From an uncultured Actinomycetota bacterium (lineage in GTDB: Bacteria > Actinomycetota > Actinomycetes > DATJPE01), in NCBI GenBank assembly GCA_963820065.1, contig CAWFYM010000013.1, forward strand, positions 5,835 to 69,834: a stretch of 64,000 nucleotides of DNA, given 5' to 3'. The position numbers and the translations under genes are program-made. Under the pieces are notes generated by a model. The model was given only the letters and a program-made list of their open reading frames with translations, was not told where the DNA came from and did not search any database. This document shows, piece by piece, positions 1 to 49,003 of the stretch. Within the stretch, counting starts at the first letter, position 1. Each line of letters starts with the position of its first letter.

Positions 1-1108
1 CATAGGGGAACACCGTCCGCGACAGACCGAGCTTGCCGTCGAAGGCCGCCCGATCGTCGTCGGTGGCCAACAGCTCGCGATACTCGCTGACGACCCGGTC
101 TCGCTCGGCGTGCAGGGCCGCGATGGGACGGGCCAGGTCGACCCCCTCACGCACTTTGGCGATGTAGTCGCGGATGAATCCGAAGGGGATCTCGACGTTC
201 TCGATCCAGATCTTGTCGGAGTGATAGAAGCCCGAGCCCGCGGAGAAGTTGAACCATGGCTCGCAGGCTTCCTCCCAGGCAACCAGCCAGGCGTCGCCCG
301 CTTCGGTTCCGCGAAGGGCGTCGCGCACTGACTCAGGGTCGCCAGCGAAGTGGTCAGCGATCCCGGATTCGACGGCCATCCTGGCGAGCTTCTTCAACTC
401 GTCGTCGGGCCGGAACAGGTCGACGTCGACGCCGGCGACCATCTTCGCGATCGCGAGGTCGGGGATGCTCGGGAACGCCTCCTTGCAGAAGCCGAAGAAG
501 TCGAGATACGCGGCATACCCGAGGTTGAGGAACTCGAAATGGTATTGCCACAGCTGGAGTGAGAGGTCGAGGAGCTTGCGGTAAGTGGCCTGTAGGTCGT
601 AACCGGAACCGATCCCCCGGCCCGAGGTGATCACCTCAAGATCTTCCTTCTCGGGGAGCGGTTCGACGCGCAGTTCGGTCATCTCCTGAACCAGAGCGCG
701 GATCTTCACCAGCCACTTGTCGTAGAGCTCGTCCCAGTTGCCGAAGTAGAAGCCGGCCCGCTCCATGAAGTGCGGTACACGCGCGCCAATCTCTTCCGGG
801 TCGGCCACGCCGACCGGGGCCAAGTAGGCGTAGCCGTTGAGGATCCGGAAGTCGACCCCGAGCGCCGGCGGGATCAGGTAGTGGCGGGTGTTGTACTGCG
901 ACAGCGAGGCGAGTGCGTACTCGTAGAACGTCGCGTCCCAGGGCGTCATCACCTCTGGCCAGTGCACGCCGTCCTGGAACCAGAAACCCGCGTCCTCATA
1001 CTCGCGGCGATCCTCGCTGAACAGCGATGAGTAGCTGTAGAGCGCCTCCCACCCCTCAGCGCCCGTGGGGGTCTCGATGTCGAACGGGCTTGGGAAACGA
1101 TCGGCCAT
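1..1108 (-). CDS. PEP-utilizing enzyme family protein (N-terminal part in window; C-terminus runs off window start)
   Basis: Unlisted minus-strand ORF starting ATG 1108 with GGAGG RBS 7 nt upstream (ACCCGGAGGTCCGCAATG). Translation begins MADRFPSPFDIETPTGAEGWEALYSYSSLFSEDRREYEDAGFWFQDGVHWPEVMTPWDATFYEYAL..., remembered as the N-terminal region of PEP-synthase-like 'PEP-utilizers' proteins. Lies 15 nt downstream of the PPDK_N gene stop. Confidence 0.55.
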   Translation of the reverse strand, partial: MADRFPSPFDIETPTGAEGWEALYSYSSLFSEDRREYEDAGFWFQDGVHWPEVMTPWDATFYEYALASLSQYNTRHYLIPPALGVDFRILNGYAYLAPVGVADPEEIGARVPHFMERAGFYFGNWDELYDKWLVKIRALVQEMTELRVEPLPEKEDLEVITSGRGIGSGYDLQATYRKLLDLSLQLWQYHFEFLNLGYAAYLDFFGFCKEAFPSIPDLAIAKMVAGVDVDLFRPDDELKKLARMAVESGIADHFAGDPESVRDALRGTEAGDAWLVAWEEACEPWFNFSAGSGFYHSDKIWIENVEIPFGFIRDYIAKVREGVDLARPIAALHAERDRVVSEYRELLATDDDRAAFDGKLGLSRTVFPY

Positions 1109-1123
1109 TGCGGACCTCCGGGT

Positions 1124-2194
1124 CTAGTCCTTGCGGGAGTACAACGGGTTGACGAGGGTGCTGACGATGCTGCTCATGAGGTCGGTCGTGCCGTGGGTGA
1201 CGGCGCGGTCCTTCTTGCTCCACACCGTCTCCGGCCGGGACTGAAGGAGAACCACGCTCGAGCCCTGGGGCAGGTCGGCGTCGATGGCCCATTCGATGTC
1301 CTGTGGGCAGCCGTAGTGCTTCTCGGCTGTGCGCGCCAAGCGCGCCACCGCCTGGATCTCCGCGTCGGTAACGCTGGGCACGTTGACCCGCTCGGGCTCG
1401 ACTTCCAGGAACTCCACCTGCTGACCGTCTACGAGGCGGTATTCGTGGGTCTTGGGTGAGATGGTCCGCCGGCTGATCGCGTAGAGCACCTTGTCGACGA
1501 GGAAGTTGTCGGGGGTCACCTCGCCGGAGACCACGCCTTCGCCGAACCCCCACGCACTGTCGATGGCGATCGTCGACCGGTCTCCGTTGCCAGGATTGAG
1601 CGTGAAGGCGACCCCGGCAGCCTTGGGCCGAATCATCTTCTGAACCGCAACGCTCATGGCCACGTCGAGGTGGGAGTAACCCATCTCGACCCGGTAGCAC
1701 AGCGCCCGGTCGGTGTACAGGCTGGCCCAGCACTGCCGTACGTGCTGACTGACGGCTTCGGCCCCGCAGATCCAAAGGTAGGTGTCGTGCTCGCCGGCAA
1801 ACGAGGCGTCCGGGGAGTCTTCGCTCGTCGCCGATGAGCGCACAGCCACGGGGACGTCGGCCATCTCGCACTGTTCGCACAGACTCGCGTAGGCCTCGGC
1901 GATCTCTGCCTCGACGTCGGTCGGCATAGGCCAGGACATGATCAACTGCCGGATGGCGGTCGCGCGCCGGGACACCGCTGGGAGATCGTCCACGTCCAGG
2001 CCCTCGAGGAGCTCGGCGATGTGATCGACGATCCCGGACTCGTCCCGTGCGCGACGGAACGCCTCGGTGGTCACCGCGAACCCTGGTGGTACGGGGAGCC
2101 CTGCCGCGACCATCTCACCGAGGCTGGCGCTCTTGCCGCCCACGGAAGCGCGCTGCTCCGGCACGAACGCGTCGAACCACACCACCACGCTCAT
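1124..2194 (-). CDS. PEP synthase/pyruvate phosphate dikinase N-terminal (PPDK_N, ATP-grasp-like) domain protein
   Basis: 356-aa ORF. GGKSASLGEM...PVPPGFAVTTEAF motif typical of the PEP/pyruvate-binding nucleotide domain. Start overlaps the upstream gene stop (ATGA). Confidence 0.7.
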   Translation of the reverse strand: MSVVVWFDAFVPEQRASVGGKSASLGEMVAAGLPVPPGFAVTTEAFRRARDESGIVDHIAELLEGLDVDDLPAVSRRATAIRQLIMSWPMPTDVEAEIAEAYASLCEQCEMADVPVAVRSSATSEDSPDASFAGEHDTYLWICGAEAVSQHVRQCWASLYTDRALCYRVEMGYSHLDVAMSVAVQKMIRPKAAGVAFTLNPGNGDRSTIAIDSAWGFGEGVVSGEVTPDNFLVDKVLYAISRRTISPKTHEYRLVDGQQVEFLEVEPERVNVPSVTDAEIQAVARLARTAEKHYGCPQDIEWAIDADLPQGSSVVLLQSRPETVWSKKDRAVTHGTTDLMSSIVSTLVNPLYSRKD

Positions 2195-3330
2195 CGGACC
2201 CCTCCTGCGGCGAGCTCCGTCGTGGTTCGCGCCGACCAGTCCGGCAGTTCCTCGGCTGCTGGTACATGAACTTCTTGGACGCGATTGCGATAGAGGACGA
2301 GCGCAGTGACGCCCCCATCGATCAGGCGGACTCGGACGAACTCGGTGTTGAAGGGCTCTCCGGGGTCATAACCCATGGCCCAGGTGGCGAAAGCTCGGAT
2401 CGGGCCGGAGTGCGTCGTGACCACGAGGGTCCGACCCGCCGATTCCTCGGCTACCCGCAGCAGGCCGGTCCAGAAGCGTCGTACACATGAGGTGGGTGGT
2501 TCGAGGTAGAGCATCGGCATCGTCAGCCAGTGGGTGATCGGATCGCCGCCCCCGTCTTGGATGCCCCAGAACCTGTCGACCTCGACGAGCCATCCCGGGC
2601 GCTCGCCGAGTGCCGTGCGTTCGTAGCGTTCCATCTCGCGCTGATAGAGACGGAACGCCGCCGTGATGTCACGGAAGCCTTCGGGGGTCCACACCCTGAA
2701 GTTGGAGAACTCGTCGTAGGCGGTGACCTCGCCGACCTCGGCCGTACGGCCGTACAACGACATCCCGTCGAGCAGCCCCCGCTTGAGGTGTTCGGCGGTC
2801 TGCCGTGCCCGGTTGGTGTCGGCGCTGGCCAGCGCCACCCGATGCCCGTCGTAGACCCGGCGGGCGATCTCCCGTCCGCGGTTGTGGGACTGCCACGATC
2901 CCAGCGGTGTGAGCCCCGCTTCCGAGGAATACCCCTGGGTCTCGCCGTGCCTGACGAAGTAGACGTCCGTGACGACATCGGCCGCCTGCTCGCGTCGTTC
3001 CGGCACGATCTCCTTGGTCCGGGTCACTTCCGCCCAGGCGCGTGTGGCGGCGAGCTCGGCGCCGTCCCACGTCGGGCGTGCCCGCTCGGTCGGCGCGTCC
3101 GCTCGAGCCGCGTCGCCGTCGTGGTGGCGGTCACGGAAGCGCCGTAGATACAGCGGGATGGTTCCGGCGTCGTCGGAGGGATTGAGGTCGCCCGCGCGGT
3201 TCTCCGCCTGACGTTGGCGATAGCGGGTGAGGTAAGCCGGAGCGTCCGGACGCTCTGTGCGGGGCAACTCGACACGCTGAGCGCCGGCGGACGGAGTCGC
3301 GTCGGTGTCCTGCATCCGGAACGCGGTCAC
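2191..3330 (-). CDS. histidine phosphatase (phosphoglycerate mutase) family protein with long low-complexity N-terminus
   Basis: 379-aa ORF, GTG start. VYFVRHGETQGY (catalytic RHG motif) precedes the core domain. The N-terminal ~120 aa are R/A/D-rich, so the true start may be later. Confidence 0.6.
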   Translation of the reverse strand: MTAFRMQDTDATPSAGAQRVELPRTERPDAPAYLTRYRQRQAENRAGDLNPSDDAGTIPLYLRRFRDRHHDGDAARADAPTERARPTWDGAELAATRAWAEVTRTKEIVPERREQAADVVTDVYFVRHGETQGYSSEAGLTPLGSWQSHNRGREIARRVYDGHRVALASADTNRARQTAEHLKRGLLDGMSLYGRTAEVGEVTAYDEFSNFRVWTPEGFRDITAAFRLYQREMERYERTALGERPGWLVEVDRFWGIQDGGGDPITHWLTMPMLYLEPPTSCVRRFWTGLLRVAEESAGRTLVVTTHSGPIRAFATWAMGYDPGEPFNTEFVRVRLIDGGVTALVLYRNRVQEVHVPAAEELPDWSARTTTELAAGGVR

Positions 3331-3340
3331 GAGCGAACCA

Positions 3341-4252
3341 TCATGAGTGCACCGTCAGGAACTTCTGGTCGACAACGCCGTCGTAGTAGAACAGGGCACG
3401 ACCCATCTCCGCCTCGGTCCAGGTGGTCGGTTCCGCATCGGGGTCCACCCAGTAGCCGCCCGTGAACACCTCGTTTCGGTTGCCACAGGGGTCGAAGAAG
3501 TAGAGACAGTGGCCGCGCGTTGCTCCGTGACGCGTGGGGTTCGTCTCGAGCCGGACCCCGTGGTACGCGCAGATGTCCGCGGCATTGCGGAGGTCTGTCC
3601 ACTCGTCCACCCAGAACGCGACGTGGTGCAGCCCACCATTGGGCCCGGTGATCAGGGCGATGTCATGCGAGCTGTGTGAGACCTCGAGCCACGTGGCAAT
3701 CTTGAATCCGTCGTCGCCGACGACCTGCTCGGTGACTCGAAAGTCCAGGACCTCGGTGAAGAACTCCGTGACCCCAGCGACATCCTCCGCAGTGAGGAAG
3801 ACGTGGTCGATCCTTGGCGGTGCTATTCCCACGAGGCCAAGCGGTCGGGGCGGTGGATTGGTCAGGGGCAACAAGTTGCCGACCTGCTCCATGGCGTGAA
3901 CCAGTTCCATGCTGTGGCCACTGGGAAGGTCGAATCGGACTGATTCGCCATGACCTGCTGCCCACTCCCCAGGCTGGAGACGCTTGACCGCGATTCCCGC
4001 GTTCTCGAGCCGCGCCTGATAGAGGTCGAGGTCTGCGGCCTCCGTGACCTTGAACCCCAGGTGGGCCAGCCCATGTGTTGGTGCGTCAGTGAGCACGATC
4101 GAGTGGTGTTGGTGCTCGTCCCAGCACTTGAGGAAGACGCGTTCAGGCTCCCGCGCCGTCTCGACCATCCCCACAACCTCGGAGTAGTAGGCGGCGGCTA
4201 GCTCGAGGTCGGGCTGACGCAGCTCGACGTGCGACAGGCGCAGGATGCTCAT
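3341..4252 (-). CDS. catechol 2,3-dioxygenase (type I extradiol dioxygenase, VOC fold)
   Basis: 303 aa. C-terminal ...HHVAFWVDEW...YFFDPCGNRNEVFTGGY...KFLTVHS matches the XylE/DmpB family end. ATG overlaps the stop of the upstream paralog (ATGA at 4252). Confidence 0.85.
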   Translation of the reverse strand: MSILRLSHVELRQPDLELAAAYYSEVVGMVETAREPERVFLKCWDEHQHHSIVLTDAPTHGLAHLGFKVTEAADLDLYQARLENAGIAVKRLQPGEWAAGHGESVRFDLPSGHSMELVHAMEQVGNLLPLTNPPPRPLGLVGIAPPRIDHVFLTAEDVAGVTEFFTEVLDFRVTEQVVGDDGFKIATWLEVSHSSHDIALITGPNGGLHHVAFWVDEWTDLRNAADICAYHGVRLETNPTRHGATRGHCLYFFDPCGNRNEVFTGGYWVDPDAEPTTWTEAEMGRALFYYDGVVDQKFLTVHS

Positions 4253-5160
4253 CAGGTGTGGACCTTCATGAAACGCTCGTTGAGCTCGCCCTCGTAGTAG
4301 AAGATGGCGCGCCCGACGTTGTCCTCGGTCCAGGTGATGGTCGGGAAATCTGGATCTGGGCGGTAACCGCCGGTGAAGACCTCGTTGCGGGTGCCCAACG
4401 GGTCGAAGAAGTAAATCGTCGTGCCGCGGGTGATGCCGTGCCTCGTTGGCCCGACGTCGATCTGGATGCCGTTGTAGGCCAAGATGTCGGCCGAGCGCCG
4501 CACGTGGTCCCAGTCGTCCAGCCAGTAGGCGAAATGATGGAGGCCACCATTGGGCCCGGTGACGACGGCAAGGTCGTGCGGGGAGTGGGAACGCTCCATC
4601 CAGGTGCCGATCTGGTGACCATTGCCGTCGAGCAGCTGCTCGGTCACCCGGAAACCCAGCACCTCCGTGTAGAACGTCGTGGCCTCGCCGACCTCTTCGG
4701 CCGTGACCAGGAGGTGGTCCATCCGCGGCGGTGCGATCCCTGGGATTCCTTGGGCGAAGGGCGGTGGGTTGATCTTGGGCAGGACGCCGCCCACCCGCTC
4801 GACGTCTCGGACCAGTTCCATGGTGTGCCCCGACGGGGTAGCAAACCGGATGGACTCGCCCTGGCCGACGGATTCACCCTTGCTGATCCGCTGGACGGGG
4901 AATCCATAGCGAGACACGGCGTTCTCGAGGTCGGCTAGGTCGTCCTCGTGCTCGACCTTGAACGCCATCAGGTCGAGGCCGACTCGGGGGGCGTAGGCGA
5001 GGCGCAAGGAATGATGGTCCGCCTCGTCCCAGCACTTCAGGTAGACCGAGTCCTCGTCACGTCCAGAGACGAGCATGCCCATGACCTCGGTGTAGTAGGC
5101 GGTAGCGAGGTCGAGGTCGGTGACCGTGACGTCGACATGGGCCATCCGCAGCACGCCCAC
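4252..5160 (-). CDS. catechol 2,3-dioxygenase paralog (extradiol dioxygenase)
   Basis: 302 aa, collinear similarity to the neighbouring dioxygenase (HHFAYWLDDW...YFFDPLGTRNEVFTGGY...RFMKVHT). Confidence 0.85.
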   Translation of the reverse strand: MGVLRMAHVDVTVTDLDLATAYYTEVMGMLVSGRDEDSVYLKCWDEADHHSLRLAYAPRVGLDLMAFKVEHEDDLADLENAVSRYGFPVQRISKGESVGQGESIRFATPSGHTMELVRDVERVGGVLPKINPPPFAQGIPGIAPPRMDHLLVTAEEVGEATTFYTEVLGFRVTEQLLDGNGHQIGTWMERSHSPHDLAVVTGPNGGLHHFAYWLDDWDHVRRSADILAYNGIQIDVGPTRHGITRGTTIYFFDPLGTRNEVFTGGYRPDPDFPTITWTEDNVGRAIFYYEGELNERFMKVHT

Positions 5161-5228
5161 GGGCCACCTCGCAGTCTGATGCTTCGTGCGTCGGGTCGGT
5201 GTCGCCGACGCTACGACGCGGTGTCCCG

Positions 5229-5982
5229 CATGACAGGACCACGTGCCGCCATGCGGGACGGGGTGGTCTACGGTCCACGGATGGAGTCACCACGCCCCGA
5301 GGACATGCGTGCCCTCGTCGCTGACTTCGTCCGGTCCCTCCACGTGGCCTACCTCGATCAGGCAAGGCTGCTCCCACCGGCCGAGCGGGCAAGGCTCCCG
5401 TTGCTCGCCGCCCCGGACCTCGTCGTCGCCGCTGCGGCTGCCCGGCAGCTACATCTGGTCGCCACCGCTGACGCCTTTCCCCCTCCGACCGGCCCCGAGG
5501 TCGTCGTGGCCGACGAGCTTCCCGGTCTGTCCTGGTCGGTTCGATTCTTCGACCCCGTCGTGCTCCCTGAGTTGGGGTTGCTGGGCGACAGCGGTGAGGC
5601 GGCAGCTTCCGACGTCCGGCGGGTGCTTGGGGTGGGTCGGATGGTCTATCACCTATCCGTCAGCCCGGGCGGCGGCTTGACCCCCCACCACGCCCAGCAT
5701 GCCGGCACTGGTCTGGCCAATCAGCACGCCGCTGCCGCTCGCGATTTCGAGGCGTTGCGGGCAGCTGTCGGCGCCCGCGCAGAGTTGGTTGACGAGATGG
5801 CCGTCGCCGAGCGGGTCGGCCTGACTCAGGCGGTGGCCTTGCTCGCCGAGGCGATCCTGCCGGGAGACCCGAGCGTCCGCCTCGCCGCACGCGAGAGATC
5901 CGCAGAAGCGGTGCGTCGCGCCCTCCTGAGCGCTGTGCGCGGGCAACTGCCGACGCAGACGTCGGGAGCTCCCCGTGGTTGA
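5229..5982 (+). CDS. hypothetical protein
   Basis: In-frame portion of listed ORF 4948..5982 downstream of the dioxygenase gene end (ATG at 5229, alternatives 5251/5283). No recognisable motif. Confidence 0.3.
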
Positions 5983-6793
5983 TGACAAGCGGTCCACCGG
6001 TGGAACGCAGGTGCTCACGAGCGTCGCGAATGCCGCCCGGTTGCTCAAAGAGTTCGGTCGGGGCGGAGAGCGGGAGCTGGGAGTGAGCGAGCTGGCCCGA
6101 CGCCTGGGTATCGGCAAGAGCACCGCCCACCGGCTGGTGCACACCCTGGCGAGCGAGCGATTGTTGGAACAAGACCCCGAGACCGGCGCTTATCGCCTCG
6201 GGCTCGTGGTGCACGAGATGGGCGCCAGCGTGCAAAGCGGCATGGACATCCACTCTGCCGCGACGCCCGTGATGGAGCAGTTGCGCAACCTGACCAAGGA
6301 GACCGTGCAGATCGCGGTGCTCGACTTCCGCGAGGTGGTCTACATCGAACGGCGCGAGAGCCCTCAGACGATTCGACTCTTCGGGCGGGTCGGTCACCGA
6401 AACAGCGCCAATTCGACTTCGACGGGCAAGGTGTTGTTGGCCTTCCTTCCTCCAGAGGAGCTTGACCTCGTGCTCAAGGATTGGCGGCTCCCTCGCAAGA
6501 CGCCCTTCACGGTCACTGACCAGCGCACACTTCGCACCCAGCTGCAGGTGGTCCGAGCTAAGGGATACGCCGAAAATGTCCAGGAGACCGAGATCGGCGT
6601 CGGCTCACTCGCTGCGCCGATCCGCGGCGCCCTGGGCGACGTCGTGGCAGCGCTGTCCGTCGCTGGACCCGTGCAGCGGTTGGACGGTGACAGCATGCAG
6701 CGCTTCGCCCGCCCCGTTGTGGAGTCTGCGGCTGCTATCAGCCGCAGACTGGGTTGGCGCGATCACTCTGTGGCCCGAGGGGGACCGGCATGA
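5975..6793 (+). CDS. IclR family transcriptional regulator
   Basis: 272 aa. N-terminal HTH (LGVSELARRLGIGKSTAHRLVHTL) plus IclR effector domain. Sits at the head of the meta-pathway operon. Confidence 0.85.
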   Translation: MVDDKRSTGGTQVLTSVANAARLLKEFGRGGERELGVSELARRLGIGKSTAHRLVHTLASERLLEQDPETGAYRLGLVVHEMGASVQSGMDIHSAATPVMEQLRNLTKETVQIAVLDFREVVYIERRESPQTIRLFGRVGHRNSANSTSTGKVLLAFLPPEELDLVLKDWRLPRKTPFTVTDQRTLRTQLQVVRAKGYAENVQETEIGVGSLAAPIRGALGDVVAALSVAGPVQRLDGDSMQRFARPVVESAAAISRRLGWRDHSVARGGPA

Positions 6794-7578
6794 CGTTGAC
6801 GAGCGCAGAGGCTGATGGGCTGGCCGACGCCATCTACTCCGCCCGGCGTACGGGGGTCTCGATCGCGCCGCTCACCGAGGCCCGCCCCGACCTATCGGTA
6901 GCCGAGGCCTACCTCGTGCAGCAAGGCGTCGTCAGGCGCTACCTGGAAGACGGCGACCGTATTGTCGGCTACAAGCTGGGCTTGACCAGCGCACCCATGC
7001 AGCAGCTGTTCGGGGTCGAGTCGCCCGACTTCGCCCCCGTGATGGCATCCCACGTCCATGCGGATGCGGCCGCGGTCCCTGCGGAAAGCTTCATCGCCCC
7101 ACGAGTGGAAGCCGAGATCGCTCTGGTGCTCGGCGCGGACCTCGCGGGGCCCGACTGCACCGCTGTCGACGTGCTGCGCGCGACGGAAGGGGCCGTCGCC
7201 GCGCTCGAGCTGGTCGACAGCCGGATCCGGGACTGGACGATCACCTTGGCCGACACGGTGGCCGACATGGCCAGCAGCGGCGCGATCGTCCTCGGCGGCC
7301 GAGCGGTCCCGCTCGCGGACATCGACCTCCGGCTGATCGGCATGGTGTTCAGCCGCAACGGCGAGGTCATGGCTAGCGGCGCGGGGGCGGCGGCGCTCGG
7401 CAATCCAGCCGCGGCCGTGGCGTGGCTCGTCCGGACCCTGCACGAGTTGGGGACTTCGCTCTCGGCGGGTGACGTGGTCATGACTGGTGCGCTTCACGCC
7501 GCGTTACCCGTTGCGCCGGGTGAGGTCTACCGGGCAGATTTCGACCGGCTCGGTCCGGTCTCCTTGCGGATCGTCTGA
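6790..7578 (+). CDS. 2-keto-4-pentenoate (2-oxopent-4-enoate) hydratase
   Basis: MhpD/DmpE/XylJ family ([22 protein letters not shown]...GYKLGLTS). ATG at 6790 overlaps the IclR stop. Confidence 0.8.
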
Positions 7579-7589
7579 GAGGGCTCGAC

Positions 7590-8498
7590 ATGGGATACCC
7601 CTGCGCGATCATCGGATCCGGCAACATCGGCACCGATCTGATGATCAAGATTGGCCGCTCGGAAGTCCTCGACCTGGTCGCCCTCATTGGCATCGATCCG
7701 GCGAGCGAGGGGTTGGCCCGCGCACGCAGCCTGGGAGTCGAAGCTTCTGCCGACGGCATCGACTGGGTATCGGATCATCCAGACGCGGTCCGGTTGGTAT
7801 TCGACGCAACCAGTGCCTACGTCCACGTCCGCCACGCCAAGGTCTTGGCTGCGCTCGGGATCAAGGCTGTCGACCTGACTCCGGCTGCGCGGGGGCCCAA
7901 AGTCATCCCCTCGGTGAACCTCGATGCCCACCTCGACGCGCCGAACGTCAACATGGTGACCTGCGGCGGTCAGGCCACGACGCCGATGGTCGCGGCGGTG
8001 AGCCGGGTGACCCGCGTGCCCTACGCGGAGATGGTGTCCACCGTCGCCTCGGCGTCGGCCGGGCCGGGCACCCGGCAGAACATCGATGAGTTCACCCGCA
8101 CCACGGCGCGGGCCCTGGAAGAGGTGGGCGGCGCCGAGCGCGGAAAAGCGATCATCATCCTCAATCCGGCCGATCCACCGATCCTCATGCGCAACACGGT
8201 CTATTGCGGGCTACCTGAGGGGACCGACCACGCAGCAGTGCTCGCCTCGATCGAGGCCATGGTGGCCGACGTGGCGAAATACGTTCCCGGCTATCGGCTC
8301 AAGCAGCCCCCGGTGATTGAGCAGGGCCCGTTCAACACCCCTGGCGGGGCGGTTCCCTTCCGAAGTGTGGTGCTCCTGGAGGTCGAGGGAGCCGGAGACT
8401 TCCTTCCCACCTACGCGGGAAACCTCGACATCATGACGGCTGCGGCCGTACGGGTCGGGGAGGCCATGGCTCTGGCCGACGCGGGGGTGTCCGTATGA
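7590..8498 (+). CDS. acetaldehyde dehydrogenase (acetylating)
   Basis: 302 aa, N-terminal [16 protein letters not shown], DmpF/MhpF/BphJ family. Confidence 0.9.
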
Positions 8499-9577
8499 GC
8501 GTCATCGAAACGGACGGGGCCGCGAGCGCAGTCACGCCGGACTTCCGACTCATCGACTCGACGCTGCGCGACGGGTCGCATGCGGTCTCCCACCAGTACA
8601 CGGTTGACGATGTTGTGGCCATCGTGCGCGGGCTCGACCGGGCTGGCGTGCAGGTCATCGAGATCGCGCACGGCGACGGGCTCGGGGGCTCGTCCTTCAA
8701 CTACGGGTTCTCCGCGGTCGACGAGAAGGAACTTGTGGCCCGGGCGGTCGAGGCGACGACCAACGCCAAGATCGCCTGCATGTTGCTGCCGGGCATCGGG
8801 GTCGCCGAGGACCTGAGGGACGTACGCGAGCTCGGCGTGGAGGTCGCGCGGATCGCCGTCCACTGCACCGAGGCCGACATCACCCAGCAGCACATCGCGC
8901 TGGCGAAGGAGCTGGGGATGGAGGCCATCGGTTTCATGATGATGAGCCACATGAACACGCCGGAAGGCTTGCTGGAGCAAGGGAAGTTGTTGCAGTCCTA
9001 CGGCGCAGACGCGGTCTACATCGCCGACTCAGCGGGGGCGATGACGACGGCCGACGTACGCGCCCGCATCGCAACGCTCGTCGATGGCCTCGACGTCCCG
9101 GTGGGCCTCCACGCACACAACAACCTGTCGATGGCGGTCGCGAACTCGATCGCCGCCTTCGAGGAGGGTGCCGGCAACCTCGACGGCACGAGCGCCGGTC
9201 TGGGGGCCGGCGCAGGCAACTGCCCGACCGAGATCCTCGCCGCCGTGTGCGACAAGTACTCCATCGCCACCGGCGTCGACGCGCTCGGACTGATGGACGT
9301 GGCCGAGGAGATCGTCCGCCCGATGATGCCCCGCCAGCAGGTGATCGACCGGGCTGGTCTGTTGCTCGGCTATGCGGGTGTCTACGGGTCATTCCTGCTG
9401 CATGCCGAGCGTGCCGCCGAACGCTATGGGGTGTCGCAAGCAGACATCCTGCTCGAGCTGGGCCGCCGCAAGGTGGTCGGCGGTCAGGAGGACATGATCA
9501 TCGACGTCGCGGTGGAGCTGGCTCGGGCGCACGCCGCGGCACCAGCTCAGGACTCGGCCACCGGAGGTTCGGCATGA
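8495..9577 (+). CDS. 4-hydroxy-2-oxovalerate aldolase
   Basis: 360 aa, [13 protein letters not shown]...[13 protein letters not shown], DmpG/MhpE/BphI family. Overlaps both neighbours (ATGA). Confidence 0.9.
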
Positions 9578-10365
9578 GTGGCGCCGATCAGCTGGACACC
9601 GCGCCCCTGGTGCAGACCTTGATCGCGGCCGTGCGTGACCGGACGGCCGTGACTCCGCTCACGAACACCATCAACGGTCTGGATGTGGCGACCGCCTACT
9701 CGGTCCAAGACGCTGTTGTCGATGCTCGCGTCGCTGCGGGGGCTGAGGTGGTGGGAGCGAAGCTCGGTCTGACCAGCGAGGCCAAGCAGCGTCAGATGAA
9801 GGTCGACTCGCCGATCTACGGCTGGCTCACCGGCGACATGCAGCTCGACGCCGGCGAGGCGCTGGTCTGCGAGCGTTACATCCAGCCGCGGTGCGAGCCG
9901 GAAGTGGCCTTCCTTCTGGACCGGGACCTGGCAGGGGCTCATGTCACCGCCGCGCATGTGCTGGCAGCGACCGATGCGTTGTTCGCGGCCGTCGATGTCC
10001 TCGACTCGCGTTTCGCGGGCTACGCGTTCACCCTTCCCGACGTGGTTGCCGACAACGCCTCGTCGGCCGGGTTCGTCCTGAGCGGCACCGCCATCGACCC
10101 ACGAGGGATCGATCTGCGCCTGGTCGGGTGCGTGCTCGAGAAGAACGGGGAGCTGATCGCCACGGCCGCTGGCGCGGCCGTCCTCGGTCACCCCGCTGCC
10201 TCCGTGGCTTGGCTCGTCCGCGCGCTTGCGGCCCGCGGGCGCGGTCTTCGGGCCGGACAGATCGTGATGGCGGGGGCTCTCACCGAGGCCGTTGCCGTCG
10301 CTCCGGGAGACACAATCGTGGCGCGCTTCGACCGTCTGGGCACGATCGAGATCGCTTGCCGGTGA
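9574..10365 (+). CDS. 4-oxalocrotonate decarboxylase (hydratase/decarboxylase family paralog)
   Basis: Real start is ATG 9574 inside listed ORF 9247..10365. Second MhpD-family paralog (GAKLGLTSEAKQ...), positioned as dmpH/xylI before the tautomerase. Confidence 0.75.
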   Translation: MSGADQLDTAPLVQTLIAAVRDRTAVTPLTNTINGLDVATAYSVQDAVVDARVAAGAEVVGAKLGLTSEAKQRQMKVDSPIYGWLTGDMQLDAGEALVCERYIQPRCEPEVAFLLDRDLAGAHVTAAHVLAATDALFAAVDVLDSRFAGYAFTLPDVVADNASSAGFVLSGTAIDPRGIDLRLVGCVLEKNGELIATAAGAAVLGHPAASVAWLVRALAARGRGLRAGQIVMAGALTEAVAVAPGDTIVARFDRLGTIEIACR

Positions 10366-10378
10366 AGGAGATTGAGCC

Positions 10379-10621
10379 ATGCCGCTGATCCAGGTCACGA
10401 TGGTGGCCGGGCGTACTCCGGAACAGAAGCAGGCCTTGATCCATGGGCTCTCCGAGGCGGCCGCTGCTGCCCTTGACACCCCGATCGACCGGGTGCGGGT
10501 CGCCATCTATGAGGTCTCCGCCGACGAGTGGGGAATCGGTGGTCGCTCCTACGCCGAGGTGCGCGCACCAGCGGCCCAGCCCCAGGTGCAAGCCGTAGCT
10601 AGTCGCACGGAGGATGCGTGA
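10379..10621 (+). CDS. 4-oxalocrotonate tautomerase (extended, 80 aa)
   Basis: MPLIQVTMVAGRTPEQKQALI: catalytic Pro1 right after Met, 4-OT family. About 18 aa longer than canonical 62-aa 4-OTs. Confidence 0.8.
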   Translation: MPLIQVTMVAGRTPEQKQALIHGLSEAAAAALDTPIDRVRVAIYEVSADEWGIGGRSYAEVRAPAAQPQVQAVASRTEDA

Positions 10622-12087
10622 ACAACAGCCCACGCCAGGTCAAGCACTTCATCGACGGTGCCTTTGTCGACAGCCTCGATGGAAAGACCTTCGAGTCTGT
10701 GTCGCCTATCGACAACCGCGTGGTGGCTGTCGTGGCCGAGGGGTCCACGTCCGACGCGGATCGCGCGGTCGAGTCGGCACGGCGAGCGTTCGACGAGGGA
10801 CCATGGCCCCGAATGAGCCCGGCCCAGCGTCGCGTGATTCTCTACCGCGCCGCGGCCTTGATCGAGGATCGACTCGAGGACCTGGCTTCGTGGGAAACCC
10901 TCGACATGGGAAAGCCGATCAGCGAGGCACGGGCCAAGGACGTGCCGCGGACGGCGTACAACTTCCGGTTCTTCGCCGACCTGGCCGAGCACGCCCACAG
11001 CGAGGCCTTCCCCAAACCATGGGACCGGGTGCTGACCTACACGATCCGCGAGCCCGTGGGGGTGTCCGCGTGTATCGCGCCCTGGAACTTCCCGCTCATG
11101 CTCGAGTCTTGGAAGGTCGCCCCTGCTCTGGCGTTCGGCAACACGGTGGTCCTCAAACCGGCTGAGCAAAGCCCTGTCACCGCGTCGATGCTCGTGGAGT
11201 GCTTCGCCGACGCGGGGATGCCGGACGGAGTGTTCAACGTCGTGCAGGGCTTCGGTCCCGGCGCTGCGGGCGAGCGGTTGACGACACACCCTGGCGTCGA
11301 CCTGATCACGTTCACCGGTGAGAGCGCCACGGGCAAGACGATCATGGCGAACGCTGCTGGCACGCTGAAGCGGTGCTCCTTCGAGCTGGGGGGAAAGAGC
11401 GCAAGCATCGTCATGGCGGACGCCGATCTCGACCTCGCGTTGGCCGGCACGATCGACGGCATCTTCCGCAACCAAGGCGAAGTTTGTCTGGCTGGCTCGC
11501 GGTTACTGGTGCAGCGGCCAGTCTACGAGGAGTTCCTCGCGCGCTACGTCGATGCAGCCGAGGCCCTCGTCGTCGGGGATCCGCGGGAACCGGAGACCCA
11601 CGTAGGGCCGATGGTGTCCACCGAGCACCTGGACAAGGTCATGTCCTACGTGGAGCTCGCACAGGGTGAAGGCGCCAAGCTCATGACCGGGGGAACGCGC
11701 GTCACGTCGGGCCACCTCGGAGCGGGAAACTTCATCGCCCCGACCGTTTTTGCCGACGTTGACAACTCCGGACGAGTCGCACAGGAGGAGGTGTTCGGAC
11801 CGCTCCAGGTCGTCATGCCGTTCGACACCGTCGACGAGGCGATCGCCTTGGCCAACAACAGTCGCTACGGCCTCGCCGGGATGGTCTGGACGACCAATCT
11901 CAACACGGCGCACCGCGTCGCGCACGAGGTCCGTACCGGAACGATGTGGGTGAACTGCTTCTTCGTCCGAGATCTGCGCGCCCCCTTCGGTGGCATGAAG
12001 GACTCCGGTCTCGGCCGTGAAGGCGGCGCCTACTCCGAGGAGTTCTTCACCGAGGCCAAGGCAGTCGTCCTCAGGTTTCCCGAGTGA
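10618..12087 (+). CDS. 2-hydroxymuconic semialdehyde dehydrogenase (NAD+ aldehyde dehydrogenase)
   Basis: 489 aa, ALDH superfamily, GTG start overlapping the 4-OT stop. Placement matches dmpC/xylG. Confidence 0.85.
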   Translation: MNNSPRQVKHFIDGAFVDSLDGKTFESVSPIDNRVVAVVAEGSTSDADRAVESARRAFDEGPWPRMSPAQRRVILYRAAALIEDRLEDLASWETLDMGKPISEARAKDVPRTAYNFRFFADLAEHAHSEAFPKPWDRVLTYTIREPVGVSACIAPWNFPLMLESWKVAPALAFGNTVVLKPAEQSPVTASMLVECFADAGMPDGVFNVVQGFGPGAAGERLTTHPGVDLITFTGESATGKTIMANAAGTLKRCSFELGGKSASIVMADADLDLALAGTIDGIFRNQGEVCLAGSRLLVQRPVYEEFLARYVDAAEALVVGDPREPETHVGPMVSTEHLDKVMSYVELAQGEGAKLMTGGTRVTSGHLGAGNFIAPTVFADVDNSGRVAQEEVFGPLQVVMPFDTVDEAIALANNSRYGLAGMVWTTNLNTAHRVAHEVRTGTMWVNCFFVRDLRAPFGGMKDSGLGREGGAYSEEFFTEAKAVVLRFPE

Positions 12088-12464
12088 GCGAGTCTGGGGC
12101 GACGCAGCGGGTGTGCCCCGTGGGCGACCTGGCGGATGGGGCCTGCCGTCGGGCCGAGTTCGAGGGAGGCGCGGCCCTGGTCGCCATGGTCGAGGGTCGC
12201 CCGTACGCAGTCTCGGATGTATGTCTTCACCGCCAGGGTCGACTGTCCGACGGCGTGCTTCGAGACGGCGTGATCACTTGCCCCGAGCACTGGTGGCGCT
12301 ATGACGTCACGACCGGGGCGCGGACCGACGAGCCATCCGACGTTCTTGCGTCCTACCCGGCCCGGATCATCGACGGCTGGGTCGAGGTCGACGTCCCCGC
12401 GGTCGAGCCAGCGCGATCCTTGCGCGACGTCCTGCTCGCGCACGCGCGCGGCCTGGATGTGTGA
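12084..12464 (+). CDS. Rieske [2Fe-2S] ferredoxin
   Basis: 126 aa with CLHRQG...CPEHWW (CxH-x17-CxxH Rieske ligands). Translationally coupled to the dehydrogenase. Confidence 0.75.
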   Translation: MSESGATQRVCPVGDLADGACRRAEFEGGAALVAMVEGRPYAVSDVCLHRQGRLSDGVLRDGVITCPEHWWRYDVTTGARTDEPSDVLASYPARIIDGWVEVDVPAVEPARSLRDVLLAHARGLDV

Positions 12465-14761: not shown

Positions 14762-15682
14762 GTGACAACGGATACGCCCTTCGACGGTTGGCCGGACGAG
14801 CTCGTGGCCCTACCCGACCACCTGACCCTCAATGTCCGCGCGGCCCCGGCGGCTGAGGATGCCCAGCCTGCGGTGCTGGTGCATGGACTCGGCGGCTCCT
14901 CCCTCAACTGGACCGCCCTCATGGGCCTGATGGGAGATCGCCTGGACAGCCGGGCTCCGGATCTTCCCGGCTTCGGGCACAGCCCACCGCCGCATGACGG
15001 GGACTACAGCCTCGGTGGACACGCCCGCGCGGTCATCTACCTGATCGAGTCGGCCGGGCGAGGCCCGGTTCACCTGTTCGGCAACTCGATGGGCGGTGCC
15101 ATCGCCACCACGGTGGCCGCAGACCGACCGGATCTGGTGCGAACGCTCACCTTGGTGTCACCCGCCTTGCCAGACCTGGCTCCCGGGCGCTGGCGCTCTC
15201 AGGTCGTCCTCCTGGCCGCACCAGGGCTCGGCCCGCTGGTGGCGCGCAAGGTGGCCGAGCTGTCGCCGCAGAAGCGGGTCGATGCCCTCATCGAGCTGTG
15301 CTTCGCCGAGCCAGGCGCGGTCCCGGACGAGTGGCGTGCTGCCGCCGAGCGCGACGTGGCGGCTCGTCAGCGGCTGCCGTACGGCCCCGACGCCGTGGTG
15401 CGCTCGACGCACGGGATCGTCCGTGCGTACCTCGACCGAAGCAAGAACTCCTTGTGGGCCAAGGCGTCTCGGGTAGAGGCGCCGACCTTGCTGGTGTACG
15501 GGAACCAGGACCGTCTGGTCCGACCGGCCATGGCGGCGCGAGCGAAGAACACCTTCCGGAACAGCCAGGCTGTGATCCTTCCGGCGACCGGGCACGTCGC
15601 TCAGATCGAGCGGCCAGCCGTGGTGGCCCGGCTGGTCGGTGAGCACCTCGACCGTTACGCCCGATCCGCCGTTGCAGGCTGA
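14762..15682 (+). CDS. alpha/beta hydrolase fold protein
   Basis: In-frame GTG 14762 after the upstream stop (listed ORF 14501.. overlaps the upstream gene). HGLGGSS...GNSMGG nucleophile elbow. Confidence 0.75.
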   Translation: MTTDTPFDGWPDELVALPDHLTLNVRAAPAAEDAQPAVLVHGLGGSSLNWTALMGLMGDRLDSRAPDLPGFGHSPPPHDGDYSLGGHARAVIYLIESAGRGPVHLFGNSMGGAIATTVAADRPDLVRTLTLVSPALPDLAPGRWRSQVVLLAAPGLGPLVARKVAELSPQKRVDALIELCFAEPGAVPDEWRAAAERDVAARQRLPYGPDAVVRSTHGIVRAYLDRSKNSLWAKASRVEAPTLLVYGNQDRLVRPAMAARAKNTFRNSQAVILPATGHVAQIERPAVVARLVGEHLDRYARSAVAG

Positions 15683-15684
15683 AC

Positions 15685-16587
15685 GTGGACGCTGAGCTGG
15701 AGGCTGTCCTCGACAGCTTTCCGGTTCTGGCCGGTCGCGGGCGCGTCGTCGACGAGCTGGCGGGCGGTCTGTCCAACCGCAGCGTCCGGGTCCGCACCAG
15801 CGAGGGGTGCTACGTCGTCCGTCTCGGGTCGGGTGCCGTGGGTCGGGGCGTCGACCGCGAGCAAGAGCTTCGGGCCAGCGCCGCGGCCGCCGACGTCGGC
15901 GCGGGCCCTGCCGTGCTCGACCACCGGACCGACCCAGATGTGTGGATCCGCGGATGGGTCGAGGGACGAGCGCTCACCAGCGATGACCTTGAGGACGAGG
16001 CGCGCCTCGGCCGGGTCGCGCAGGCGTTGACGCGTCTGCACGCGGCCGTCGGGTTGGTCGGGTCCTTCGACCTCGCCGGCCACAGGGAGACCTGCCTCGA
16101 GCGAGTGAGTCAGGGGGCGGCCGCCCTGCCTGACTGGTACCTCACGGTCCTGCCCCAGGTGCGGCGGCTGGAGCGGGTCCTGGCCGCAGAACCGGAAGGT
16201 CTAGTGGCGTCGCACAACGACCTGGTGCCGGGGAACCTCATCGACGACGGGACGACCGTGTGGGTCATCGACCTCGAGCACGCGGCACCGAACGAGCCCA
16301 GCTTCGACCTCGGGACCCTCATGGTCGAGGGCAGCCTCGGCGATGACGCGGCCGCCTCCCTGATCGCGGCCTACTGGGGGTCGCCGTCCCCGCGCAAGTA
16401 CGCCCGAGCCCGCGCCTGGGGCGAGCTCGCGCGCTACACCTGGATCGCCTGGGCTCTGGCCCAGCCGGTCGAACCCGGCGCCACCGACTGGCGGGGGTGG
16501 GCAGTCGAGCGGTACGACTCGGTGAGGGCTGCTCTGACCGGCGACTCGTACGACGATCTCCTGGCTGGCGTCTCCGCTCCGCGCTGA
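15685..16587 (+). CDS. phosphotransferase (APH/choline-kinase-like) family protein
   Basis: 300 aa; SHNDLVPGNLI...VIDLEHA catalytic loop/DxE motifs typical of APH-fold kinases. Confidence 0.65.
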   Translation: MDAELEAVLDSFPVLAGRGRVVDELAGGLSNRSVRVRTSEGCYVVRLGSGAVGRGVDREQELRASAAAADVGAGPAVLDHRTDPDVWIRGWVEGRALTSDDLEDEARLGRVAQALTRLHAAVGLVGSFDLAGHRETCLERVSQGAAALPDWYLTVLPQVRRLERVLAAEPEGLVASHNDLVPGNLIDDGTTVWVIDLEHAAPNEPSFDLGTLMVEGSLGDDAAASLIAAYWGSPSPRKYARARAWGELARYTWIAWALAQPVEPGATDWRGWAVERYDSVRAALTGDSYDDLLAGVSAPR

Positions 16588-16664
16588 GCCCCCCAGCAGC
16601 CCGCGCCCCGATCGCGGCGGTCGCCCCCGCCGCGCGCTGGCGCGCCGGGCGTCATGATGGAGGA

Positions 16665-24680: not shown

Positions 24681-24986
24681 ATGAATGGCGTGCTGCCTAC
24701 TCCCTACGCCGAGCAGGTCCTCGACCTCGTCGCGCAGATCCCCTCTGGTCGGGTCATGACGTACGGCGACGTCGCCGGTCACGTGGGAGGCGCCGCGATC
24801 TCGGTCGGGCGTGTGATGAGCCGGTTCGGCTCCGGCGTTCCCTGGTGGAGGGTGATTCGCGCAGGCGGACTGATGCCCCCCGGTCACGAGGACGAGGCGG
24901 CTCGACGTCTCGCGAGCGAGCATGCGCCGTTCCGCGAACCTGGGGTTCGCGTCGACGTCGCCCGATGCCGCTGGGTCCCCGACTGA
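24681..24986 (+). CDS. MGMT-family (alkyltransferase-like, DNA-binding domain) protein
   Basis: ATG 24681. GRVMTYGDVAGHVGGAAISVGRVM...PWWRVIRAGG matches the methylated-DNA-protein-cysteine methyltransferase C-terminal fold without an obvious PCHR cysteine. Confidence 0.65.
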   Translation: MNGVLPTPYAEQVLDLVAQIPSGRVMTYGDVAGHVGGAAISVGRVMSRFGSGVPWWRVIRAGGLMPPGHEDEAARRLASEHAPFREPGVRVDVARCRWVPD

Positions 24987-25041
24987 CTCGGACCCGCCCG
25001 TCGGAGGTCGAGGCGTCGGCGCGGTCTGGTTCGCTGCACCT

Positions 25042-48912: not shown

Positions 48913-48989
48913 CGCGGGGTGGAGCAGCTCGGTAGCTCGCTGGGCTCATAACCCAGAGGTCGCAGGTTCAAATCCTGCCCCCGCTACCA
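48913..48989 (+). tRNA. initiator tRNA-fMet (anticodon CAT), CCA encoded
   Basis: CGCGGGGTGGAGCAGCTCGGTAGCTCGCTGGGCTCATAACCCAGAGGTCGCAGGTTCAAATCCTGCCCCCGCTACCA. Near-identical to E. coli tRNA-fMet as recalled, including the 1:72 mismatch and three G:C pairs in the anticodon stem. Confidence 0.85.
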
Positions 48990-49003
48990 ACGTTTATGCA
49001 GGT

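Follow-up and report, generated by a model that had tools for sequence, protein, structure and literature searches.

To our knowledge, aerobic catabolism of phenolic compounds that is initiated by phosphorylation is a recent theme with few characterized examples (Cre, Hpe/Acv and MarK). In these systems, the phosphate is carried while the side chain is modified. Here we analyze a gene cluster at the left end of a 64,000-nucleotide stretch of DNA from an uncultured Actinomycetota bacterium (contig CAWFYM010000013.1; the whole stretch is hereafter called the window), in which a split enzyme resembling phosphoenolpyruvate (PEP) synthase is encoded in one operon with a histidine phosphatase and two catechol 2,3-dioxygenases (C23O_A and C23O_B). 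An earlier note, made from the letters of the window alone, had proposed that this operon phosphorylates and dephosphorylates a phenolic compound that feeds a meta-cleavage pathway. We find it probable, from homology and conserved gene order, that the cluster specifies a kinase-initiated route from a phenolic compound to meta cleavage of a catechol, and that the window shows the visible half of a supercluster conserved among actinobacteria, most of them uncultured.

Among the described systems, the 4-cresol pathway of Corynebacterium glutamicum (CreHI-CreJEF-CreD) resembles the cluster in that it is aerobic and actinobacterial, has an IclR regulator and places the gene for the ATP-grasp subunit of its dikinase before that for the swivel subunit. 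Its logic (phosphorylate, oxidize, dephosphorylate) is also the logic that we propose for the cluster. However, oxidation in the Cre pathway is carried out on the methyl side chain by a P450, and its phosphatase is the HD-domain protein CreD, whereas the cluster has a Rieske oxygenase, encoded beyond the window edge, and a histidine phosphatase, joined in relatives by a HAD hydrolase. The Cre pathway also has a short-chain dehydrogenase/reductase (SDR) and an aldehyde dehydrogenase (ALDH) and ends in 4-hydroxybenzoate and ortho cleavage, in contrast to the extradiol cleavage of the cluster, and the dikinases form separate clades. Membership in the Cre group was rejected, as there is no P450 or HD-domain gene among the annotated genes of the window and of two related loci, L081 and L082 (hereafter the annotated set; L numbers denote related and reference loci). 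Our references for the known systems were taken from annotated plasmids. The Cre-type reference, from plasmid pRB98 of Rhodococcus oxybenzonivorans (L085), comprises genes for IclR, a P450, the ATP-grasp and swivel subunits, an SDR, a ferredoxin, a reductase, an HD phosphohydrolase and an ALDH. This cluster lies directly behind a toluene monooxygenase operon (L085, 300383-320173), an arrangement that suggests a route from toluene through p-cresol to 4-hydroxybenzoate on one plasmid.

The hydroxyphenylethanone pathway of Rhodococcus rhodochrous GD02 (HpeHI-HpeCBA-HpeD) and AcvAB of Sphingobium SYK-6 share a phenolic dikinase with the cluster. As we propose for the cluster, a dedicated phosphatase follows the modifying step, and a role in substrate scavenging and trapping has been proposed. 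The Hpe pathway differs in its middle enzyme, a biotin carboxylase, in its phosphatase, a NagD-like HAD protein (HpeD) with a strong preference for the modified (carboxylated) intermediate, and in the CoA ligase and hydrolase that then lead to vanillate or 4-hydroxybenzoate. The residue that precedes the catalytic histidine of the swivel domain is Ser in the cluster (read from L081), in CreH and in PpsA, but Cys in HpeH. We rejected membership in the Hpe/Acv group, given that the annotated relatives have a HAD hydrolase but no carboxylase or CoA ligase and that HpeI falls outside the clade of the window enzyme.

The phenylphosphate synthase PpsABC of Thauera and Aromatoleum, which works with phenylphosphate carboxylase, has a homologous dikinase with presumably the same chemistry at the phenolic hydroxyl group. 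This system is anaerobic, has the swivel gene before the ATP-grasp gene (the reverse of the cluster), and includes the CBS-domain protein PpsC and a UbiD/UbiX-type carboxylase, but no phosphatase, oxygenase or dioxygenase, as seen in our reference from plasmid pAZKH of Azoarcus KH32C (L086; ppsA-ppsB-ppsC(CBS)-ppcBDAG-UbiD-UbiX). Membership in this group was rejected on the absence of PpsC and UbiD/UbiX genes from the window, L081 and L082, on the reversed gene order and on the position of PpsB outside the clade. The earlier note had likened the split enzyme to phenylphosphate synthase and had held that the latter is paired with a phosphatase in anaerobes; the likeness stands (51% identity to PpsB), but the pairing does not: anaerobic PpsABC has no partner phosphatase. 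The pairing of kinase and phosphatase is already known from the aerobic actinobacterial Cre and Hpe systems, and its aerobic use is not new in itself.

The classic dmp, xyl and aph operons share with the cluster the genes for catechol 2,3-dioxygenase, 2-hydroxymuconic semialdehyde dehydrogenase (HMSD), 4-oxalocrotonate tautomerase (4-OT), 4-oxalocrotonate decarboxylase (4-OD), hydratase, aldolase and acylating dehydrogenase. Unlike them, the cluster has two ancient C23O paralogs, an IclR regulator gene preceded by a conserved gene without a family assignment (orfX), and an upper module of kinase, Rieske oxygenase and phosphatase. The annotated set holds no multicomponent or flavin phenol hydroxylase, no xyl upper pathway, no plant-type XylT/DmpQ ferredoxin and no 2-hydroxymuconic semialdehyde (HMS) hydrolase, and membership in the dmp/xyl group was rejected; as the earlier note had said, the cluster does not match these operons, with which it shares the lower-pathway genes alone.

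The split dikinase, the phosphatase and the dioxygenase pair

The minus strand of positions 1-5160 carries five consecutive genes, all strongly supported, as seen in the list of open reading frames (ORFs) and in a manual translation, in DNA with a G+C content of ~64-70% across the first 16 kb of the window. The stop codon of C23O_A overlaps the start codon of C23O_B (TGATG), the stop codon of the phosphatase gene overlaps the start codon of the ATP-grasp gene (ATGA, with AGGAGG upstream), and the ATP-grasp stop is followed by a 15-nucleotide (nt) gap containing GGAGG, a ribosome-binding site, before the fifth ORF. The fifth ORF starts with ATG at 1108 and is cut by the window edge, such that its 369 N-terminal residues (2-1108) are visible. 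In the earlier note, it was the start of the phosphatase gene that overlapped the start of the kinase gene, which we correct to its stop. The five ORFs of that note all exist. The note overlooked the Rieske ferredoxin gene at the end of the divergent operon, and the Rieske oxygenase, the most constant partner of the kinase, lies beyond the edge.

As judged from sequence and domain comparisons, the split enzyme is a two-component phenolic dikinase of the HpeHI/CreHI/PpsAB kind and not a PEP synthase. The ATP-grasp protein is a stand-alone polypeptide with PF01326 as its sole Pfam domain, and its closest solved structure in a search of the PDB is the stand-alone HpeI (9GOJ; E = 1e-82, 46% identity). 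According to the depositors' paper (PMC12167813), HpeI supplies the ATP-grasp part of HpeHI, a two-component phenolic dikinase from Rhodococcus rhodochrous. In HpeHI, CreHI and PpsAB, the phenolic hydroxyl group is phosphorylated through a histidine of the swivel domain, and a catalytic-histidine motif, T/SxxGGxxxH, has been described for HpeH, CreH and PpsA (PMC12167813). Identity of the window ATP-grasp subunit is 46% with HpeI, 49-52% with the Cre-type subunit and 51% with PpsB, a distance similar to that among these three, which are mutually 42-47% identical.

Swivel subunits of the HpeH, CreH and PpsA kinds are mutually ~45% identical (PMC12167813), and the swivel subunit of the cluster, measured through its L081 ortholog, is 55% identical to the Cre-type subunit and ~51% to PpsA. 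The visible part matches sub-models of PRK08296 with 396-475 bits (best PRK08296.1-2, over residues 3-369) and is 63-78% identical to orthologs of 600-615 aa, in agreement with a second subunit of ~600 aa that begins with a substrate-binding domain like that of rifamycin phosphotransferase. The visible 369 residues have no Pfam match, and the PEP-utilizers domain with the catalytic histidine lies outside the window. The full-length orthologs match Pfam with PF00391 alone, near the C-terminus (about residues 527-598; present in L008, L081, L082 and L017), and the L081 ortholog carries TDVGGMMSH, which fits the described motif. The earlier note had read the split enzyme as a PPDK_N protein followed by a PEP-utilizers protein with its own ribosome-binding site. 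The PPDK_N domain and the ribosome-binding site are there, but the PEP-utilizers domain, the swivel domain that the note had proposed to look for, is not in the window and is seen in the orthologs.

PEP synthase is a single three-domain protein of ~790 aa and rifamycin phosphotransferase (RPH) a protein of ~865 aa, and membership in each family was judged accordingly; the models of both cover the ATP-grasp subunit by their N-terminal third alone. Against the PEP synthase models (TIGR01418/PRK06464), the ATP-grasp subunit scores 347.6 bits, over model positions 2-338 alone, and the swivel subunit 97.9 bits, compared to a cut-off of 739.75. Against the RPH model (NF041857), the scores are 279.7 and 120.4 bits, compared to a cut-off of 999. 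Both families were rejected. We give next to no credence to the idea that the split enzyme is a PEP synthase of central metabolism, which recycles pyruvate from the meta pathway to PEP beside an unrelated housekeeping phosphatase. Both subunits do match TIGR01418 and PRK06464, PDB homologs were named ‘phosphoenolpyruvate synthase’ by their depositors, and the meta pathway ends in pyruvate. However, the matches are far below the cut-off and cover the ATP-grasp and swivel parts alone; the orthologs of 603-607 aa stop right after PF00391 and lack the PEP/pyruvate-binding TIM-barrel domain, PRK08296 is the family of their first 480 residues, and the neighbors are aromatic-catabolic genes and a Rieske oxygenase gene. 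For the earlier note, a bona fide PEP synthase with conserved synteny unrelated to aromatic genes would have spoken against its reading; the scores fall far short of PEP synthase, and aromatic-catabolic synteny is conserved in 16 loci.

To place the kinase among its relatives, we built a neighbor-joining tree (50 bootstraps) of 85 ATP-grasp subunits that included the HpeI, Cre-type and PpsB references. The oxygenase-linked dikinases form one clade (bootstrap 43/50), which contains none of the three references. The Cre-type reference groups with loci from Microbacteriaceae and Streptomyces (70-74% identity) and not with the window, the closest neighbors of PpsB in the tree are Chloroflexi-type (Anaerolineales), archaeal and Desulfobacteraceae loci, and HpeI is no more than 49% identical to any of the 80 loci found in our genome scan. 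Of the two enzymes that the earlier note had proposed for comparison, PpsB is homologous but outside the clade, and for RPH the window subunits score far below the cut-off. One locus of the scan, L017, has a second, divergent dikinase pair (15095-17947, minus strand) ~2 kb from its oxygenase-linked pair, on the opposite strand and in the order swivel to ATP-grasp.

The phosphatase gene starts with GTG at 3330 or ATG at 3315; a database protein of 374 aa (P0001) is 100% identical to its product. The catalytic motifs RHGE and THSGP are invariant in the family, as are R122, H123, G124, R169, R171, H176 and H302 in an alignment of 24 sequences, and these bear out the histidine phosphatase assigned in the earlier note. 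The N-terminus carries three further invariant motifs, LPRTERPDAPAYL, PLYLRRFR and WAEVTRTKEIVPERREQ, in a segment that is predicted to be disordered in the AlphaFold2 (AF2) model. The core of the model has the histidine phosphatase fold in a fold search (probability 1.00), yet is only 12-18% identical to any structure. A sequence search of the PDB found no match, which places the protein in a separate subfamily, and a search of plasmids also found no match. There are >1000 homologs of ~350-400 aa, labeled ‘PhoE’ in JGI annotation. By these sequence criteria, the phosphatase is a distinct, well-populated and unstudied subfamily with a conserved N-terminal extension, and we predict that it acts on aryl phosphates.

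These N-terminal motifs, conserved, disordered and docking-like, bear on a very improbable alternative, that kinase and phosphatase are a resistance or regulatory pair, in which a phenolic antibiotic or toxin is inactivated or the phosphatase resets the phospho-histidine of the kinase. This alternative also draws on the match of the RIF_Ptrans_rph model to both subunits and on the homology between HpeH and RPH, which reaches the substrate-binding domain (PMC12167813). It is at odds with the low RPH scores, with the embedding of the genes in, and their coupling to, a complete ring-cleavage pathway in 16 loci, and with the catabolic function of all characterized two-component members (PMC12167813).

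The two dioxygenases exceed the curated equivalog cut-off of TIGR03211 (320 bits), with 381 bits for C23O_A and 362 bits for C23O_B, and they are the translationally coupled extradiol dioxygenase paralogs of the earlier note. The structures closest to C23O_A are of the XylE type (5ZNH, 1MPY and 3HPV; E = 1e-76 to 1e-78). Direct reading finds the motifs DH, LHH, NEVF, (S)HD, TRHG and (I/L)YFFDP in both paralogs; with residue roles as in XylE, these supply the iron ligands (2-His-1-Glu) and the catalytic residues (His, His and Tyr). Within the window, the two paralogs share 53% identity. Comparisons between loci give 64-84% for A to A and 63-79% for B to B, but 49-55% for A to B. Orthologs are more alike than paralogs, and we conclude that the duplication is old and that both copies have been kept.

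Related loci and the Rieske oxygenase predicted beyond the window edge

With the ATP-grasp protein as query, the scan of species-representative genomes yielded 80 loci, the best at only 65% identity. The whole order, in which the IclR gene and orfX are transcribed away from the run of C23O_A, C23O_B, phosphatase, ATP-grasp and swivel genes, is present in 13 of the 80 (L001-L009 and L011-L014), which are metagenome-assembled genomes (MAGs) of Nanopelagicales, Acidimicrobiia, Nitriliruptorales, Mycobacteriales and unclassified Actinomycetota; L010 starts at the phosphatase, at a contig edge. Most loci with the conserved order also retain the lower pathway behind the IclR gene. The same order was found in three loci fetched through the phosphatase, for a total of 16 loci with full synteny: L081, which is 84% identical to the window in DNA, L082, which lies on a 3.68-Mb contig, and L083, from a Nocardioides MAG. 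In L082, the genes for the dioxygenases, phosphatase, kinase, oxygenase, HAD hydrolase, reductase and lower pathway are co-directional and closely spaced. Overall, the cluster occurs in MAGs of Nanopelagicales, Acidimicrobiia, Nitriliruptorales, Mycobacteriales, Nocardioides and Streptosporangiaceae from lakes and soils.

A gene for a Rieske oxygenase of ~420 aa directly follows the swivel gene in every related locus with enough sequence (16 loci: L002, L005-L013, L017, L021, L031, L036, L081 and L082). Its domains are Rieske and LigXa_C/VanA_C, and the L081 sequence has an intact Rieske motif, CPH...CGYH, and an intact iron motif, DPHHVEWLH. Among solved structures, it is closest to RO_CH34 and to phthalate and isophthalate dioxygenases of the alpha-only type (E = 1e-39 to 1e-49). 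With PDO_KF1 (7FJL), RO_CH34 (7FHR) and IPDO (9INA), the cluster oxygenase shares the Rieske CxH...CxxH and the DxxHxxxxH iron motif; however, the similarity is moderate and mainly in the first 280 residues, and its partners include a Rieske ferredoxin and a four-cysteine mini-protein. The characterized oxygenases of the phthalate family act on anionic aromatics, but the cluster oxygenase lacks their carboxylate-binding Arg.

The four-cysteine protein (orf83; ~83 aa, CPxC...EYW...WCxxCxW) is encoded next after the oxygenase in most of these loci (L081, 14998-15249, with equivalents in L002, L006-L008, L010, L012, L013, L017, L031 and L036). Its cysteine pattern resembles a zinc ribbon or rubredoxin. 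A HAD hydrolase gene usually comes after orf83. Genes for a third FAA-hydrolase paralog and for a reductase are also present in some loci; the reductase is FNR-type with a C-terminal [2Fe-2S] domain in L082 and an FprA-like flavoprotein in L002 and L007.

The proposed route and its alternatives

The gene content, domain architecture, clade structure and synteny described above are best read as a probable route in five steps. The substrate would be a small phenolic, with phenol or a 4-alkylphenol as candidates if the oxygenase hydroxylates and a guaiacol-type compound if it O-demethylates. First, the two-subunit dikinase would phosphorylate it by way of phospho-histidine on the swivel domain (ATP + ArOH -> ArO-PO3 + AMP + Pi). 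Second, the phthalate-family Rieske oxygenase, with electrons from the Rieske ferredoxin of the divergent operon and a reductase, would oxygenate the anionic aryl phosphate beside the phosphoester; it would either hydroxylate the ortho position or O-demethylate a methoxy group located there. Third, the histidine phosphatase, possibly together with the HAD hydrolase of relatives, would strip the phosphate to leave a catechol. Fourth, the two C23O paralogs would cleave catechol or a 4-substituted catechol, and fifth, HMSD, 4-OT and 4-OD, then hydratase, aldolase and acylating dehydrogenase, would convert the product to pyruvate and an acyl-CoA. The phosphate may serve both for intracellular trapping and as an anionic handle of the kind used by characterized phthalate dioxygenases.

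Two lines of reasoning lead to this proposal. The annotated set lacks phenol hydroxylases of the flavin or diiron type, as well as any P450, any biotin carboxylase and any UbiD carboxylase, and with no such conventional enzyme among the annotated genes, the module of kinase, oxygenase and phosphatase is the sole candidate source of catechol. In addition, the known aerobic relatives (Cre and Hpe) run in the order phosphorylate, modify, dephosphorylate. The annotated clusters of the window, L081 and L082 also hold no transporter gene, which fits the idea of trapping by phosphorylation proposed for HpeHI (PMC12167813). All computational tests run (structure match, identities, scores and synteny) support the suggestion of the earlier note that phosphorylation and dephosphorylation of a phenolic compound feed the meta pathway.

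Several observations weigh against the proposed route. The swivel domain and the oxygenase are outside the window, and their presence here is inferred from the 84%-identical L081 and from synteny; all relatives of the cluster are MAGs. An argument for an anion-binding pocket from homology to phthalate dioxygenases was dropped when Arg233 of RO_CH34 was found to align with Ile. Replicons of Burkholderia and Caballeronia encode 49%-identical homologs of the oxygenase, in unrelated and uncharacterized contexts. In the dikinase tree, L015 is the sole member of the clade that is not oxygenase-linked, and its neighbors are an SDR and an ALDH. Two phosphatase families (histidine phosphatase and HAD) are conserved in the cluster, which the model does not explain. 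Finally, L017, L031 and L036 have kinase, oxygenase and orf83 alone, without dioxygenases or histidine phosphatase nearby, and the retention of these three genes marks them as the conserved core.

The last two observations bear on the main mechanistic rival, which we consider unlikely but worth serious attention. Here the Rieske enzyme would act as an ipso/ortho (1,2-) dioxygenase on the phosphoester-bearing carbon, and the resulting gem-hydroxy-phosphate would collapse spontaneously to catechol and Pi. The histidine phosphatase and HAD hydrolase would then be accessory, and would proofread or salvage dead-end aryl phosphates or reset the phospho-enzyme. Sulfonate, halide, amino and phenoxy leaving groups are lost spontaneously in related oxygenases, and the phthalate family includes angular phenoxybenzoate dioxygenase. 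The cluster oxygenase belongs to this family, and one of its 49%-identical homologs is annotated as an angular phenoxybenzoate dioxygenase; such a reaction would also agree with the lack of a histidine phosphatase near the kinase-oxygenase-orf83 cores and with the absence of a dihydrodiol dehydrogenase from the cluster in the L081 and L082 annotations. However, the histidine phosphatase is translationally coupled to the kinase and kept in 16 loci, and the HAD phosphatase is conserved too, which suggests a dephosphorylation in the main line, as by CreD and HpeD.

The neighbors of L015 resemble those of the Cre cluster, and this raises a second alternative, in which the kinase masks the hydroxyl group of a 4-alkylphenol, the Rieske oxygenase takes the place of the P450 CreJ on the side chain, and the phosphatase frees a 4-hydroxybenzyl or 4-hydroxybenzoate product, while the dioxygenases and meta pathway are merely co-located and serve another substrate. 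The nearest aerobic precedent is indeed of this form (dikinase, P450 and phosphohydrolase; L085, and CreHI in PMC12167813). We nevertheless hold this alternative to be quite improbable: dedicated alcohol or aldehyde dehydrogenases for a benzylic route are missing from the cluster, the L081 and L082 annotations place no protocatechuate or hydroxybenzoate genes nearby, and in 16 loci the dioxygenase, phosphatase, kinase and oxygenase genes form one operon, in which they are translationally coupled or run in the same direction.

Within the kinase-initiated route to meta cleavage, a more specific reading can be put forward tentatively, and we lean slightly away from it: uncultured soil and freshwater Actinomycetota may convert phenols to catechols without a flavin or diiron hydroxylase, with an aryl phosphate as the true substrate of the Rieske oxygenase. 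The ester might be ortho-hydroxylated or O-demethylated, or the phosphate expelled by ipso-dioxygenation, and the new histidine phosphatase subfamily might complete a high-affinity route of trapping and oxidation. We know of no Rieske oxygenase for which aryl phosphates are an established substrate class. Full-text literature searches did not find the combination of dikinase, Rieske oxygenase, histidine phosphatase, two extradiol dioxygenases and meta pathway, and literature searches on combinations of kinase, Rieske and extradiol enzymes and on aryl-phosphate intermediates returned nothing relevant. If the reading holds, it would extend the phosphorylation principle to catechol formation itself and to extradiol cleavage, and would define a new enzyme partnership, in which a dikinase works with a Rieske oxygenase and a histidine phosphatase. 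Metagenomes commonly contain the cluster (>1000 phosphatase and >500 orfX homologs), and it could be a quantitatively relevant sink for phenols derived from lignin or humic matter at low concentration. Oxygenases and phosphatases specific for aryl phosphates, and the two C23O paralogs, are potential biocatalysts, and two proteins without an assigned function, orfX and the four-cysteine orf83, gain a defined genomic context.

The divergent operon, its control and other features of the window

The minus-strand operon is divergent from the lower meta-cleavage operon, as the earlier note had described. The latter starts with orfX and the IclR gene and continues with the lower meta pathway (Table 1). 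Its genes mostly overlap by 4-8 nt, with 8 nt between orfX and the IclR gene, and there are two short gaps of 11-13 nt. For the hydratase, the program placed the ORF start at 6754; from the translation, the likely start is an ATG that overlaps the IclR stop codon.

Table 1. Features of the two divergent operons and of the region between them
Feature	Position	Strand	Match or remark
Dikinase swivel/substrate-binding subunit, N-terminal 369 aa (HpeH/CreH/PpsA-like)	2..1108	-	NCBIfam PRK08296.1-2
ATP-grasp dikinase subunit (HpeI/CreI/PpsB-like), 356 aa	1124..2194	-	PF01326 PPDK_N, 379 bits
Histidine phosphatase branch 1, ~375 aa, predicted aryl-phosphate phosphatase	2191..3330	-	PF00300, 47.5 bits
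Catechol 2,3-dioxygenase paralog B (C23O_B), 303 aa	3341..4252	-	TIGR03211, 362 bits
Catechol 2,3-dioxygenase paralog A (C23O_A), 302 aa, first gene of operon	4252..5160	-	TIGR03211, 381 bits
Divergent intergenic region, 90 bp, presumed promoters of both operons	5161..5250		Between C23O_A start 5160 and orfX start 5251
Inverted repeat GTCCCGCAT-N19-ATGCGGGAC, candidate IclR operator	5223..5259
orfX, conserved hypothetical, 243 aa, first gene of divergent operon	5251..5982	+
IclR-family regulator	5975..6793	+	PF01614, 152 bits; PF09339, 53 bits
2-Oxopent-4-enoate hydratase-like	6790..7578	+	TIGR03220 (dmpE) best match, 265 bits, below cut-off 408.8
Acetaldehyde dehydrogenase (acylating), ADA	7590..8498	+	TIGR03215, 441 bits; cut-off 282
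4-Hydroxy-2-oxovalerate aldolase	8495..9577	+	TIGR03217, 500 bits; cut-off 286
4-Oxalocrotonate (2-oxo-3-hexenedioate) decarboxylase-like, 4-OD	9574..10365	+	TIGR03218 (dmpH), 255 bits, below cut-off 350.55; PF01557
4-Oxalocrotonate tautomerase, 4-OT	10379..10621	+	TIGR00013, 67.7 bits; cut-off 56.9
2-Hydroxymuconic semialdehyde dehydrogenase-like, HMSD	10618..12087	+	TIGR03216, 582 bits, and TIGR02299, 596 bits, both below cut-off: family level
Rieske-type [2Fe-2S] ferredoxin, 126 aa, last gene of divergent operon	12084..12464	+	PF00355, 53.8 bits

The 9-mer GTCCCGCAT occurs in two copies in the 64 kb, an inverted pair at 5223-5231 and 5251-5259, and the start codon of orfX lies partly or wholly within the right arm. 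In the equivalent region of L001, L003, L004, L007, L081 and L083, this pair recurs with its copies 28 nt apart. This conserved inverted repeat is a good candidate for the IclR operator, and we predict that IclR controls the divergent operon. A perfect 16-nt palindromic operator was considered and rejected, as its sole match was at chance level and elsewhere in the window; the motif was redefined as the 9-mer.

In the cluster, orfX is always found directly upstream of the IclR gene, which it overlaps. Its product has >520 homologs but no Pfam or NCBIfam match. It has invariant histidines, including an HHAxHxG...H motif, and its AF2 model is of good quality (pLDDT 89, pTM 0.82), but its best structural neighbor in the PDB reaches no more than E = 1.3. 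The protein may have a new fold, or it may sense a ligand or metal as a partner of the regulator.

The Rieske ferredoxin gene, with which the divergent operon ends, is joined to the HMSD gene by an ATGA overlap, and a Rieske ferredoxin gene occupies the same operon position in L002, L003, L005-L008 and L081-L083. Its product resembles the ferredoxins AndAb and HcaC; a lower meta pathway does not need such a protein, and we predict that it donates electrons to the Rieske oxygenase of the other operon. With respect to the pathway itself, the annotated set holds the dehydrogenase branch but no HMS hydrolase, which, by established knowledge of meta pathways, points to catechol or 4-substituted catechols as the substrates of ring cleavage. 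In L081, the ADA and aldolase genes have been lost and a 52-aa remnant ORF is left (L081, 5278-5436, compared to 7643-9590 in the window).

Elsewhere in the window, two adjacent genes for ~1120-aa proteins with UvrD-type helicase and PD-(D/E)XK nuclease domains (AdnAB/AddAB-like; 24922-31589, plus strand), followed by a UvrD/HRDC helicase gene (33886-36135, plus strand), are housekeeping DNA repair genes unrelated to the catabolic cluster. Beyond a tRNA-Met (CAT) gene at 48913-48989, the G+C content falls from ~0.67 to 0.55-0.60 at 55-63 kb, and there are few ORFs with high G+C at third codon positions. An ALIL pseudoknot, a frameshift signal of IS3-family transposases, is located at 54351-54463. 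The region 48913-64000 is probably a horizontally acquired island or an insertion sequence.

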